IMG/VR virus record: IMGVR_UViG_3300026085_000093
Location: 128,001-192,000 of that record
Reading direction: 5' to 3' (one strand)
Length of the DNA stretch: 64,000 bases
From: a virus
Taxonomy: Duplodnaviria; Caudoviricetes
In this document: piece after piece, positions 15,056-49,960 of the stretch
Layout: every line of letters begins with the position of its first letter
Position numbering within the stretch: position 1 is the first letter of the stretch
The notes under the pieces: generated by a model
The model's input: only the letters and a program-made list of their open reading frames with translations
Database searches by the model: none
What the model was told of the DNA's origin: nothing
Made by a program: the position numbers and the translations under genes

Positions 15056-15063
15056 TATTTATC
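15056..15063 (-). promoter_or_regulatory. T4-type late promoter (GATAAATA) for gp6/gp7-like genes
   Basis: Matches the TAAATA core recurring before late genes. Confidence 0.7.
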
Positions 15064-15084
15064 TAGGATTATAATACACGTACT

Positions 15085-38919: not shown

Positions 38920-40098
38920 ATGTCAGAACTATTAGAAAGTCGCTGGCAGGAGACAAAAGGTGCACTTCTTGAAGGCCTAAATGGTAACAAGAAAGCTGTA
39001 ATGGCGACAACACTTGAAAATACACGCAAGTATTTGTCAGAGAGTGCAACTTCAGGCGCAACTGCTGCTGGTAACATCGCAACACTAAACCGTGTGATCC
39101 TTCCTGTGATCAGACGTGTAATGCCAACCGTTATTGCTAACGAGTTGGTAGGCGTTCAGCCAATGACTGGTCCAGTCGGACAAATCCATACTTTAAGAGT
39201 ACGTTATAGTGACGCATTCACAGGTTCAGCAGGCGGAAGCACTGTCGCTGGCGAAGAAGCACTATCACCGTTCAAAATTGCAGAAGGTTATTCAGGTAAC
39301 ACAACATCTGCAGACACAGCCGGTGCAACAGGTGCTCTAGAAGGTATTGCTGGTAACAGACTAAGCATTCAGATCTTGAAGCAAACAGTCGAAGCCAAAT
39401 CACGTAAACTAAGCGCACGTTGGACATTTGAATCAGCGCAAGACGCTCAGTCACAGCATGGCATCGACGTAGAAGCAGAAATCATGGCAGCACTTGCTCA
39501 AGAGATTACTGCTGAGATCGACCAAGAAATCATCCGCAGCCTAACAACTCTTGCAGGTTCAGCGGTTGAAACATACGACCAAGCCGCTGTATCAGGTACG
39601 GCTACTTTTGTTGGCGACGAACACGCAGCACTTGCAGTTCAAATCAACAGAGTGTCAAACCTAATTGCACAGCGTACACGCAGAGGCGCAGGTAACTGGG
39701 CAGTTGTATCACCAACAGTACTAACACTACTACAAAGTGCAACAACATCTGCATTTGCTCGTACAACAGAAGGTACATTTGAAGCACCAACAAACACAAA
39801 AATGGTTGGTACACTAAACAACAGCATGAAAGTATATGTAAACACATATGCAGGTAATGACAATGTTCTAGTTGGCTACAAAGGTACATCAGAATCAGAC
39901 GCAGCAGCGTTCTACTGCCCATACATTCCATTAATGAGCAGTGGTGTTGTACTAGATCCATCAACATTCGAACCAACAGTGTCATTCATGACACGTTATG
40001 GTTACGTAGAACTATCAAACGCAGCATCGTCACTAGGCAATGCAGCGGATTACCTAGGTCTAGTTGGTGTAACAACAGCAAACCTAAGCTTCGCGTAA
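38920..40098 (+). CDS. gp23: Major capsid protein, T4 gp23 family (392 aa)
   Basis: LPVIRRVMPTVIANELVGVQPMTGPVGQI, VEAKSRKLSARWTFESAQD, YCPYIPL, FMTRYG. Confidence 0.97.
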   Translation: MSELLESRWQETKGALLEGLNGNKKAVMATTLENTRKYLSESATSGATAAGNIATLNRVILPVIRRVMPTVIANELVGVQPMTGPVGQIHTLRVRYSDAFTGSAGGSTVAGEEALSPFKIAEGYSGNTTSADTAGATGALEGIAGNRLSIQILKQTVEAKSRKLSARWTFESAQDAQSQHGIDVEAEIMAALAQEITAEIDQEIIRSLTTLAGSAVETYDQAAVSGTATFVGDEHAALAVQINRVSNLIAQRTRRGAGNWAVVSPTVLTLLQSATTSAFARTTEGTFEAPTNTKMVGTLNNSMKVYVNTYAGNDNVLVGYKGTSESDAAAFYCPYIPLMSSGVVLDPSTFEPTVSFMTRYGYVELSNAASSLGNAADYLGLVGVTTANLSFA

Positions 40099-40121
40099 GT
40101 TTTAGAATATATATTTTTAAG

Positions 40122-40147
40122 ATAGGCCCTGCGGGGCCTATTTTTAT
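40122..40147 (+). terminator. Intrinsic terminator after the capsid gene
   Basis: ataggccc-tgcg-gggcctat followed by a T run. Confidence 0.85.
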
Positions 40148-40154
40148 GTAAATA
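40148..40154 (+). promoter_or_regulatory. Late promoter GTAAATA for the CSD-like gene
   Basis: Immediately after the capsid terminator. Confidence 0.65.
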
Positions 40155-40170
40155 CTGTAAGGAGATACTA

Positions 40171-40383
40171 ATGGAAACAGGTACAGTATATAAAAAATTA
40201 AAAATGCATGGATTTATTAGACCAGATCGTTGGAAAGCGACACGTAAAGATATTGTGTTTGATCCACGTTTGTATGATCTAAAAATTGGCGACAGAGTGC
40301 AATATCTTGCAGATGATTTTAAAGATAGAAAATTTGCAACAAAAATAGAAAAAATTGAAAAAAAAGATCAAGATTATCGTTGA
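40171..40383 (+). CDS. Cold-shock-domain/OB-fold-like small protein (70 aa)
   Basis: METGTVYK..HGFIRPD...DIVF...LKIGDRVQY echoes the CSD pattern TGTVKWF..GFGFI.PD...DVFVH...G..V.F; own TAAATA motif and GGAG SD. Confidence 0.55.
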   Translation: METGTVYKKLKMHGFIRPDRWKATRKDIVFDPRLYDLKIGDRVQYLADDFKDRKFATKIEKIEKKDQDYR

Positions 40384-40407
40384 CAAACTTTTTTTAGATG
40401 TTATATT
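40380..40407 (+). promoter_or_regulatory. sigma70-type promoter with extended -10
   Basis: TTGACA (40380-40385), 16-nt spacer containing TG-n, TATATT (40402-40407). Confidence 0.8.
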
Positions 40408-40413
40408 AAGTAC

Positions 40414-40670
40414 ATAACAAAGACGACGGTCCGAGTTAGATAGTGCAAGGAAACGATGCTTACCCAGGCATTAACTTGACTCACACGCTGTGGTGGCGCT
40501 GTAAGACTTTGGAGACAAAGCATTGCAGGAAAAGTAGAACTAACCATTCTATTGTGAGGTTCCGTGCTGATCTGAGCCTGATGGGGCATAGTGCGGTTGT
40601 TGGTAATCAGTAGTCCAACCTATCACATATTATAGAAAAAGGTCTGCTATATTTTAGTAGGCCTTTTTTT
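40414..40670 (+). ncRNA. Candidate stand-alone structured small RNA (~255 nt)
   Basis: Bounded by a sigma70 promoter and a terminator; no credible sense ORF; GNRA hairpin ctttg-GAGA-caaag and other stems. Confidence 0.65.
40636..40670 (+). terminator. Intrinsic (possibly bidirectional) terminator
   Basis: A5-ggtctgcta-tattt-tagtaggcc-T7. Confidence 0.9.
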
Positions 40671-40699
40671 ATGACATAATAACCCATTTTAATCTTTTG

Positions 40700-40707
40700 G
40701 ATAAATA
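40700..40707 (+). promoter_or_regulatory. Late promoter GATAAATA
   Basis: Upstream of the structured leader and ORF 40794. Confidence 0.7.
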
Positions 40708-40793
40708 CTTGTGTCAAGAGGAGTGCCTCTAGATGAGGACTTATGCGGTGCCCGCCGCGTATTACCTAGAACGTAACATAAAAGGAGAAAACA

Positions 40794-41243
40794 ATGGGAC
40801 GTCCAATTAATAAATCAAAAATAGGATACGGTGCAGGTAAAATTGCTGTAAGCCGTCACTATTTTACAGGTGGTTCAGAAGCAACTACAGCAGCACACAT
40901 TTACAAAGTAAAAGGTGCTAACCAATTTTGGGTACGCTTAGATAGCGACAATGCAGATCCAACAGCAGGCGAAGTTCTAAAATTAACGACAGAAGGCAAC
41001 GGAGCGATGCCAGAAGGTACATTTAGAATTGATGCAACTGGTTCTGACTCAACAGTTTATCAAGTAACACAACTTCGTAACAGAACAGTACAAATTGAAA
41101 ATACTGCAAAAGGTACTGCTACACCTCCAGATGGTGACAAAGCAGACAATGTAATTTACGAAATTGGTAATCATCCAGATGCAAGAGAAGATTCAGGTGT
41201 ACCAAACGCAGTATTAAGTGTATCTCTACCAAGACAATCATAA
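40794..41243 (+). CDS. Hypothetical late/structural protein (149 aa)
   Basis: GATAAATA promoter, structured leader and AAGGAG SD upstream. Confidence 0.75.
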   Translation: MGRPINKSKIGYGAGKIAVSRHYFTGGSEATTAAHIYKVKGANQFWVRLDSDNADPTAGEVLKLTTEGNGAMPEGTFRIDATGSDSTVYQVTQLRNRTVQIENTAKGTATPPDGDKADNVIYEIGNHPDAREDSGVPNAVLSVSLPRQS

Positions 41244-41256
41244 GTTGGAGATATAA

Positions 41257-42582
41257 ATGTCAGCGTCTAGAATCGAGCAGTATGGAGTCGACAATTATAA
41301 GTTAACAATTAACGATGGCGGAACTATTGAAATTAATGTAGGTTCCGGCACTGTCGTTATCAATGGTGACTTAGATGTCAATGGTTCCCAAACTTCGATT
41401 ACTTCGTCTGAATTAATTGTAAGTGATAAGACCCTAACACTAAACAATCAATCTAATACACTATACGATATTGTTGGTATTACACAAACAAACCCAGCAC
41501 AAATAGAATTATCAGATGCACACAGTTTTACTGATGGTAGCGAAGTAATCATTACTAATGTTTTAGGAATGATAGAATTAAACAATAACACTTACTATGT
41601 AAATGTTGTTGATCCTACCACAGTTGAATTGTTTGCAGATTTTCTATTAACAACGCCTGTAGATTCGTCAGGGTTTACTGCATACGTAAGTGATGGTAAT
41701 ATACAAAGGGTAATTGCAACTGGTATTGGTGGAGATGAAATTTCAGGTATCATAATGGATAGAGGTACATTACCTAATGCTGTTATGTTTTACGATGAAA
41801 ACTTACTTTCATACACTAACGGTGTGTTAGAAGCAAATGCAGGTGCATTTAAGTTTGGTTTAGAAGGTTCAGGATACTTAGGTATCTACACTAGCAGTAT
41901 TAAAACTGAAGACGGTAATGATCTTAACTTGTTACCAGGATCAAACTTAGGAGGTGTTGTTTCTGTATCAGGATCACTTGATTATGAAAAACGCCTTGCT
42001 GAATATGATGGCAGTGAAATTAAAAATATGCCTACAAATTCTGACAGATTGTCAGGGGCAGATTGGCCAGGATATGAACCAGATGCAATTCCTAATTTGC
42101 AGTTCTTGAAAGACTATGTTAGAGACTATCACAAATACAATTGGCAATATAGAATTAATGCTATTGAACCGGATGGAACAACAAAAGTAGAAGCATTCAG
42201 TACACTAGATGGTACTACAACATTAAGTAATGTTAGAATTACTGTAGACGGTAGTGAAATTGCATACTTTTATGAAACATCTGCAGAAATTGCACAAGTT
42301 ACCATAGACGGCTCTACAATTTCGTCAACTGGACTTGATAGTGATTTGAAAATATCAGGTAATAATTTAGGTGATGTGCAAGTATTAACACCTATGTTGT
42401 TTCCTAAATTGACAGATCCTGCATTAACTGCTACAGAAGCAACACCACCAACTGATGGTACAAAGATATATGCAAAAGACGAGGCTGATGGCGGCACAGG
42501 TTTATATTTTATAAACGAGTTAGGTACACAAGACGAATTTATAAGCAGGAATAAAGCTCTGCTTTATAGTATTATTTTTTAA
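41257..42582 (+). CDS. Virion structural protein (441 aa) with an FCCH-like beta-sandwich insertion
   Basis: IVGITQTNPAQIELSDAHSFTDGSEVIITNVLGMIELNNNTYYVNVV resembles the E1-FCCH-like modules common in phage tail proteins. Confidence 0.6.
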   Translation: MSASRIEQYGVDNYKLTINDGGTIEINVGSGTVVINGDLDVNGSQTSITSSELIVSDKTLTLNNQSNTLYDIVGITQTNPAQIELSDAHSFTDGSEVIITNVLGMIELNNNTYYVNVVDPTTVELFADFLLTTPVDSSGFTAYVSDGNIQRVIATGIGGDEISGIIMDRGTLPNAVMFYDENLLSYTNGVLEANAGAFKFGLEGSGYLGIYTSSIKTEDGNDLNLLPGSNLGGVVSVSGSLDYEKRLAEYDGSEIKNMPTNSDRLSGADWPGYEPDAIPNLQFLKDYVRDYHKYNWQYRINAIEPDGTTKVEAFSTLDGTTTLSNVRITVDGSEIAYFYETSAEIAQVTIDGSTISSTGLDSDLKISGNNLGDVQVLTPMLFPKLTDPALTATEATPPTDGTKIYAKDEADGGTGLYFINELGTQDEFISRNKALLYSIIF

Positions 42583-49952: not shown

Positions 49953-49960
49953 GATAAATA
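49953..49960 (+). promoter_or_regulatory. Late promoter GATAAATA for the giant tail fibre
   Basis: Intergenic, ~75 nt upstream of ATG 50036. Confidence 0.7.

Follow-up and report, generated by a model that had tools for sequence, protein, structure and literature searches.

Between the capsid and fibre genes of an uncultured T4-like phage stands a promoter that is followed, some 255 nt on, by a terminator, which raises the questions of what RNA is encoded between the two, to which family it belongs, and whether it serves the neighbouring genes or acts on its own. The window, meaning the whole 64-kb stretch of DNA that was analysed, comprises bases 128001-192000 of a 236-kb IMG/VR virus record. 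Upstream of the unit it carries genes for a T4-type portal, a prohead protease, a probable scaffold protein and a gp23-type major capsid protein (38920-40098); downstream are a 149-aa gene (40794), a 441-aa gene and genes for giant proteins of 2334 and 3373 aa. The capsid gene is followed by a 70-aa ORF (window 40171-40383) for which no Pfam match was found at E up to 0.01 and a weak PHROG match was the only other one, which gives no support to a cold-shock-domain protein; its stop codon lies inside the -35 box of the unit's promoter. The setting of the RNA is T4-like and aquatic, with word matches in aquatic, marine and estuarine runs, although word shares alone were not taken as a basis for habitat claims. 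An earlier reading of this locus, made from the sequence only, had proposed an early phage small RNA of unknown family; what it had observed proved right on every point checked, and its assignment to no known family is revised below.

Promoter, transcript and terminator

The promoter (Table 1) scores 11 of 12 consensus positions and in addition has an extended -10 element in a consensus scan. It is the only match of at least 11/12 with the TG in the 64-kb window on both strands, where shuffled sequences give 0.24 such sites, and the near-consensus sigma70 promoter of the sequence-only reading is thereby upheld as unique in the window. Transcription would be expected to start 7 nt past the -10 box, at about 40414, and the 3' end to fall in the U-run, at about 40668.

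The core of the terminator, GGTCTGCTA / TAGTAGGCC, occupies 40641-40663 and is extended by A/T pairs, with seven T following at 40664-40670; in the minimum free energy (MFE) fold of 40414-40675 it forms a stem of 20 bp, which agrees with the strong terminator that had been claimed. A simple scan overlooked it because of its G-T pairs. The MFE of 40414-40675 is -84.5 kcal/mol against -65.6 +/- 4.5 for dinucleotide shuffles (z = -4.2), and in this structure the terminator and the fold that precedes it coexist without overlap, separated by a 12-nt spacer. A possible antiterminator, sought by eye between the 5' arm of the terminator and the fold, amounted to only a 4-bp AGAC/GUCU match to P1 and was rejected.

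The next operon begins with a probable T4-type late promoter, so identified because its motif also stands in front of other structural genes of the window: GATAAATA(C/T) recurs intergenically 27-92 nt before such genes at 30290-30297, at 49953-49960 and, on the minus strand, at 15059-15066. Behind it lies a freshwater-2 leader, a separate 5' leader of the 149-aa gene that is not part of the RNA unit.

Table 1. Features of the RNA unit and of the elements that follow it, in window coordinates
Feature	Position	Strand	Description
Sigma70-type promoter	40380..40407	+	-35 TTGACA 40380-40385, 16-nt spacer, TG 40399-40400, extended -10 TGtTATATT, TATATT 40402-40407
Predicted primary transcript, ~255 nt	40414..40670	+	Predicted from promoter and terminator
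P1 hairpin	40415..40438	+	UAAC/GUUA around GAC-GACG-GUC; from MFE fold and pair counts; equivalent to classical manA P1 with GACG loop
manA core	40439..40624	+	Closed by P2, GAUAG 40439-40443 with CUAUC 40620-40624; from RF01745 match, MFE fold and compensatory changes
P3	40447-40477	+	In manA core
P4	40480-40485 with 40553-40558	+	In manA core
P5	40486-40498	+	In manA core
L5 loop core UGGU	40491..40494	+	Complementary to L7 ACCA; relatives UGGU/ACCA -> UAGU/ACUA
P6	40499-40528	+	In manA core
L6 GNRA tetraloop GAGA	40512..40515	+	On extended P6
P7	40534-40552	+	In manA core
L7 loop core ACCA	40543..40546	+	Pairs with L5 UGGU
P8	40562-40596	+	In manA core
L8 element CUGAU	40578..40582	+	Complementary to L9 AUCAG
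P9	40599-40619	+	In manA core
L9 loop core AUCAG	40606..40610	+	Inside conserved GGUA..CAG.A.UCC hairpin
Intrinsic terminator	40636..40670	+	A-tract, GGUCUGCUA, loop, UAGUAGGCC, U7; read in sequence and MFE fold
T4-type late-promoter-like GATAAATA	40700..40707	+	Heads next operon; outside the RNA unit, bounds it
freshwater-2 leader (RF02980)	40724-40796	+	55.6 bits against cut-off 49.9; contains Shine-Dalgarno and ATG of 149-aa gene

Assignment to the manA family

The manA family has been known since 2010 from T4-like cyanophages and marine metagenomes (PMC2864571) and is labelled cis-regulatory, a riboswitch candidate, by Rfam and by Weinberg et al. 2010 (PMC2864571). In a permissive Rfam scan, a check that the sequence-only reading had itself proposed, the manA model RF01745 matches 40420-40629 end to end at 54.9 bits (E 3.5e-13); the gathering cut-off of the model is 55.2 bits, and manA is absent from the default Rfam scan because the window copy falls 0.3 bits below it. 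Pattern scans of viral and metagenome contigs returned about 14 contigs carrying the same RNA at 90-97% identity; these relatives score 50.7-58.0 bits on RF01745, two types passing the cut-off (55.6 and 58.0). In the wider clade behind homologous capsid genes the scores are graded from 29.7 to 78.6 bits, with E-values of 1e-13 to 1e-16 recorded, and classical manA RNAs from 15 cyanophage records or viral contigs reach 140-193 bits; at about 55 bits the window RNA therefore belongs to a distant branch, most of which the Rfam cut-off misses.

The wider clade was drawn from 80 loci around capsid-protein homologues (81-99% identity), fetched out of about 600 existing, on which two covariance models were run, R1 built from classical manA and R2 from the variant clade. 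R2 in return recovers the classical cyanophage manA RNAs at 41-51 bits (E 1e-12 to 1e-16). When 22 classical and variant RNAs are aligned, 92.5% of cells pair against 32-43% with slid partners, in an alignment that is itself model-fitted, and both partners have changed in 42 of the 61 pairs, among them P2 pairs that went from GC to AU and from GC to UA. The homolog and covariation search that had been proposed along with the Rfam scan thus found a clade, with compensatory changes in its helices. Judged by sequence and pairing, the window RNA belongs to a divergent part of the manA lineage and is a new variant, not a new family; given the reciprocal R2 match and the helices kept with compensatory changes, the view that its family is unknown no longer holds.

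In P3 the window RNA is without the CUGAAUAAACUU internal loop, the most conserved classical element; a search of P3 for the conserved form CUGAAUAAaCUU found GAAACG in its place. An RNA of intermediate type, between the classical and the window form, is present at L090:2774-2985, with 78.6 bits, a GGGU/ACCC P2 and an UAAUAAUC loop in P3, and would help to root the variant clade.

The sequence-only reading had also named a 6S-like decoy of RNA polymerase as one possible role. This finds no support: the Rfam scan gave no 6S match even at E up to 10, and the MFE fold is a multi-branched junction and not the long, largely double-stranded rod with a central open-promoter-like bubble that is expected of 6S RNA. 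Searches of other kinds added little: a blastn comparison of 40100-40900 with 50,697 phage records yielded just a 57-nt chance match to a Clostridium phage, since the RNA is too divergent for it; one metagenome scan gave no further sequence types; and the 149-aa protein as a query led to near-identical loci only. The pattern matches in L008, L011, L018, L022, L044, L045 and L059 lie in coding DNA and were set aside as chance.

Fold and conservation of the helices

All the manA helices are reproduced by the MFE fold of the window RNA, namely P1, P2, P3, the P4-P7 three-hairpin junction, P8 and P9, and the conserved loops are in place: GUGGUG at 40490-40495, ACCA at 40543-46, GNRA at 40512-15 and GGUA..CAG.A.UCC at 40602-40616. 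Four stems that had been noticed in the sequence before any family was considered are real and find their places in this architecture, with ctttg-GAGA-caaag being the tip of P6, agtagaa/ttctatt being P7, ccgtgct/agtgcgg being P8 and gttgg/ccaac being P9. No tRNA or tmRNA was found by ARAGORN, as had been stated.

In the eight close relatives the helices are kept, with 99.1% of cells paired against 29-46% with slid partners, and among the eight closest relatives five pairs, one of them in the terminator stem, change on both sides. The structures were set by hand from the Rfam consensus and MFE folds, because RNAalifold on MAFFT alignments gave poor consensus structures; P6 and P7 were counted on the variant alignment, since the R1-fitted alignment misplaces these two helices of the variants. 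Every variant type has GAGA, GAAA or GUGA as its L6 tetraloop, and a GNRA loop is found at L6 of nearly all the classical RNAs.

Comparison with classical manA (RF01745; PMC2864571) shows the same order and topology of all nine helices, the shared loops GUGGUG (L5), ACCA (L7), GNRA (L6) and GGUA..CAG.A.UCC (L9), and likewise a sigma70 promoter of its own right before P1. The differences are in P2 (GAUAG/CUAUC in the window, GGGAG/CUCCC in the classical RNAs), in P6, which is about 18 nt longer in the window RNA, in the P3 internal loop already described, and in L8/L9, where CUGAU/AUCAG stands against the classical CUGUA/UACAG. The host differs as well: it is an uncultured jumbo phage of the T4-like type that encodes giant fibre proteins, and not a known cyanomyovirus.

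Layout of the unit in related loci

A manA-like RNA follows the capsid gene at a distance of 105-1014 nt in 24 of the 80 loci, or in 18 of the 52 that have at least 1200 nt downstream, and each phage record searched has a single copy. In all 22 variant-clade loci it is preceded by a promoter with the TG, in the form TTGAC(n), 16-17 nt and a TGnTATATT-like -10 element, the sequence of the spacer varying; from the end of the -10 box to the model start there are 7 nt in 18 of these loci and 12-13 nt in the other 4. In 19 of the 22 relatives the RNA ends about 3-10 nt ahead of a hairpin with a T-run, the stem sequences being unrelated, and ATAAATA is found 33-69 nt downstream in 16 and directly at the RNA end in 2 more (18/22). 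Downstream of the manA unit, at least 12 relatives also have the freshwater-2 motif (43.7-76.6 bits). Promoter, terminator and late-type motif across the relatives therefore describe a self-contained unit and not a leader of the fibre operon.

Three of the 22 are without a terminator. In L012 and L072 the late-type motif comes at once, and in L125 a tRNA gene (L125:2999-3070) starts one base past the manA-like RNA with no terminator between them. For the L012 type the surrounding region is non-structural, and a cluster of tRNA-Trp, tRNA-Pro and tRNA-Met begins 250 nt further on; at L012:3174-3419 the late-type motif behind the RNA is succeeded by an ORF of 20 aa that has a Shine-Dalgarno sequence, and a terminator separates this ORF from the three tRNAs.

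In some relatives a glnA RNA, the glutamine riboswitch, comes immediately behind the capsid gene and ahead of the manA unit (L112:2734-2783, L078:2734-2781 and L084:2736-2782; 43-58 bits, cut-off 35); none was found at the corresponding place in the window.

Classical manA in cyanophages

In annotated cyanophage records, classical manA stands directly after gp23 in P-HM1, P-RSM4 (and S-TIM4), S-SSM5 and metaG-MbCM1; other copies precede talC, gp32, a purL-like gene or a carbamoyltransferase gene, or follow pstS. Most of the 15 classical copies have a promoter of the form TTGACA, 16-18 nt and TGnTATAAT type that ends a few bases before P1, and terminators are found right behind the RNA in P-HM1 and S-SSM5.

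In L032, L035 and L038-L043, about 60 nt before manA, a GC-rich hairpin carries the -35 element TTGACA in its loop, and its T-run serves as the promoter spacer, as in GAGGGTGCTTGACACCCTCTTTTTTT. Terminator and promoter are in this way combined into one element in those cyanophages.

Annotated 'hypothetical proteins' overlap manA RNAs of 169-186 bits at L032:1472-1648, L034:1562-1735, L037:1556-1730 and L040:1505-1711, and such annotations occur in the GenBank/RefSeq records of P-HM1, P-SSM4, P-HM2 and S-SSM5 and also as ORF_135 of S-TIM4. These are probably false gene calls.

Presence in RNA libraries

Twelve runs recorded as RNA contain 42-63% of the sampled words of the RNA. Contigs from four RNA runs, each of a different study, were placed on 39800-41300, and all cover the body of the RNA, starting at 40424, 40429, 40430, 40432 or 40435 and ending within 40560-40630. 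In one contig a sequencing adapter is joined at 40424, and this contig extends beyond 40625 by about 40 nt, reaching into a variant terminator. None of the listed RNA contigs bridges 40408-40423; this stretch and 40106-40207, both free of RNA-contig cover, were not counted as evidence of absence. Contig depth over the RNA is 150-275, compared with 2.4-2.6 for the upstream and 4-12 for the downstream neighbours, figures from assembled contigs that cannot prove ends, strand or level; strains are mixed, and DNA may have been carried over. Contig X22, which has no flank cover, is uninformative because it is of the L012 type and has another genomic context. Taken together, the RNA-library contigs are a consistent hint of expression and not proof of it.

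With these data the proposal of an early phage small RNA is supported in part: the unit is self-contained and non-coding, its host-type promoter lies in a late gene block, it is conserved across the clade, and its RNA is found in contigs of four studies; the unknown family has had to be given up, and the 6S-like decoy finds no support.

Loop complementarity and proposed assembly

The unit encodes a free-standing RNA of the manA family, about 255 nt long, which is probably an early structural RNA that acts in trans and multimerises through L5-L7 and L8-L9, a reading that is held with moderate confidence. A host-type RNA polymerase should start at about 40414, directly ahead of P1, and the RNA takes up the manA architecture of P1, P2 closing P3, the three-hairpin junction P4-P7, P8 and P9; the terminator, separate from the fold, would end the transcript at about 40668, and a late-type promoter and a freshwater-2 leader of its own serve the next operon. 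As a structural RNA it would then work in trans, neither as a leader nor as a riboswitch, and by analogy with the pentamers, decamers and 60-mer formed by classical manA in vitro it most probably forms multimers via L5-L7 (UGGU/ACCA) and L8-L9 (CUGAU/AUCAG), together with the GNRA loop L6.

The analogy draws on a cryo-EM preprint (10.64898/2026.07.01.735769, July 2026), which reports that classical manA RNAs associate into pentamers, decamers and a T=1 cage of 60 subunits. The contacts between the molecules are given as kissing loops, L5-L7' and L8-L9', and a further subgroup is reported to use L5-L7' and L3-L8' together with an L6 GNRA-receptor contact. According to the preprint, manA_A0F1 forms the 60-mer cage and pho34 and related RNAs form decamers, the periphery deciding which oligomer arises, and self-assembly was in vitro only, at high RNA and Mg concentrations. 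For the window RNA the loop numbering was obtained by counting helices from the 5' end, which makes L5 the GUGGUG loop, L6 the GNRA loop and L7 the ACCA loop, with L8 at the tip of the long hairpin and L9 as the GGUA..CAG..UCC loop. With this mapping, the window RNA has the loops named as interfaces of the cryo-EM assemblies (L5-L7', L8-L9' and the GNRA L6), the paired loops are complementary to each other, and they covary in its clade; the variant differs from the assemblies in its peripheral P3 and P6.

Between the classical CUGUA/UACAG and the CUGAU/AUCAG of the window, two L8-L9 pairs are changed on both sides. At least eight different complementary forms of L8/L9 exist in the clade, such as AGGAU/AUCCU, AAUGAUC/GAUCAUU, GAGAG/UUCUC and CAGAA/UUCUG, and cognate L8-L9 partners score a mean of 4.76 compared with 4.07 +/- 0.17 for permuted partners, a value reached by 1 of 5000 permutations, although relatedness inflates such counts. 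The complementarity is just 3 bp in the subgroup of L104, L088, L090 and L093, and part of CUGAU is buried in a small stem in the MFE fold of the window type. Two lineages have UAGU/ACUA at L5/L7 in place of UGGU/ACCA; this single switch from G-C to A-U is the sole support for covariation of L5-L7, because the length score shows no difference between cognate and swapped partners (4.08 vs 4.00). The covariation of the loop pairs is no effect of fitting, because neither pair was in the covariance models.

Free-standing structured RNAs that are linked to phages or prophages include ROOL, GOLLD and OLE, for which homo-oligomeric cryo-EM structures have been reported. The window RNA resembles them in being free-standing and highly structured; they are 2-4 times its length and share neither sequence nor fold with it, and the Rfam scans made here gave no match to ROOL, GOLLD or OLE.

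The same loops could serve within one molecule, as tertiary contacts of a monomeric RNA that acts in trans by titrating a host or phage protein or by pairing with mRNAs, a reading that is possible yet rather unlikely. The stand-alone unit and the evidence of expression fit it equally well, RNAalifold places L5-L7 as a nested intramolecular helix in classical manA, and covariation is blind to the distinction, as it cannot separate intramolecular from intermolecular loop contacts. However, the loop pairs are reported as intermolecular in every manA construct that 10.64898/2026.07.01.735769 describes as an assembly, and neither a candidate target nor an extended single-stranded seed region was found in the window RNA.

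The preferred reading of a multimerising, free-standing manA RNA could be taken one step further, in what is a tentative and on balance unlikely proposal: manA RNAs, the variant included, might be early, abundant and free and form pentamer-based shells or cages in the cell, as an RNA compartment or a multivalent decoy, their gene having repeatedly settled beside the capsid gene. If this were true, the label 'cis-regulatory' would be wrong for a large share of manA members. The family has been an orphan 'riboswitch candidate' since 2010, and the report of 2026 made it the first natural RNA described as forming an icosahedral cage, although in vitro only and without biological context. The present locus and its clade supply manA with such a context: the RNA has a gene to itself, between an early promoter and a terminator, and recurs behind the capsid gene in several T4-like lineages; its body is present in RNA-library assemblies of several studies; and the loops identified here with the cage contacts covary in nature. 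The layout of the unit, its recurrence and the covariation of its loops therefore make RNA cages in the cell testable in cultured cyanophages (P-HM1, S-SSM5).

Action on the neighbouring genes

The label of the family suggests a different role, that of a cis-regulatory riboswitch or attenuator in which a ligand or protein bound to the manA fold would set whether transcription passes the terminator and reaches the 149-aa gene and the fibre operon. Besides the classification by Rfam and Weinberg et al. 2010, the unit lies upstream of the next operon on the same strand, and several classical copies stand 17-45 nt before an ORF; since many classical manA RNAs directly precede an ORF, a cis role is possible for the family. 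For the window RNA it is improbable. In a riboswitch platform the terminator would share nucleotides with the aptamer, whereas here, as mentioned, a spacer of 12 nt separates two folds that form together in the MFE structure; no conserved alternative pairing was seen, and the terminator arms differ widely among relatives. The RNA lies clearly outside any 5' UTR, unlike the RNAs on which the cis-regulatory label is based: between its terminator and the gene come the late-promoter-like GATAAATA and the freshwater-2 leader, and the next ORF is 165 nt on. The same RNA is also found beside tRNA genes in other phages.

Less probable still is a role as the 3' end element of the late capsid transcript (gp23 and the 70-aa ORF), by which chiefly the upstream mRNA would be ended and stabilised. 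The position of the RNA after gp23 in 24 of the 80 relatives' loci and in four cyanophages would suit such a role, and the terminator would halt upstream transcripts too, but a conserved and correctly spaced sigma70 promoter lies right before P1 in every copy, no listed RNA contig extends across 40408-40423, and the RNA also occurs away from capsid genes.

That a small protein gene (56 aa on the plus strand or 62 aa on the minus strand) accounts for the conservation is hardly credible: both small ORFs exist, and GenBank cyanophage records do have hypothetical proteins across classical manA RNAs, but the plus-strand ORF (40443-40613) has an in-frame stop in 4 of the 8 close relatives, in line with the earlier statement that no credible sense ORF is present, and the minus-strand ORF, though open, encodes amino acids that differ at many positions among relatives whose RNAs are about 90% identical, neither ORF has a Shine-Dalgarno sequence, and the substitutions are instead compensatory in the helices.
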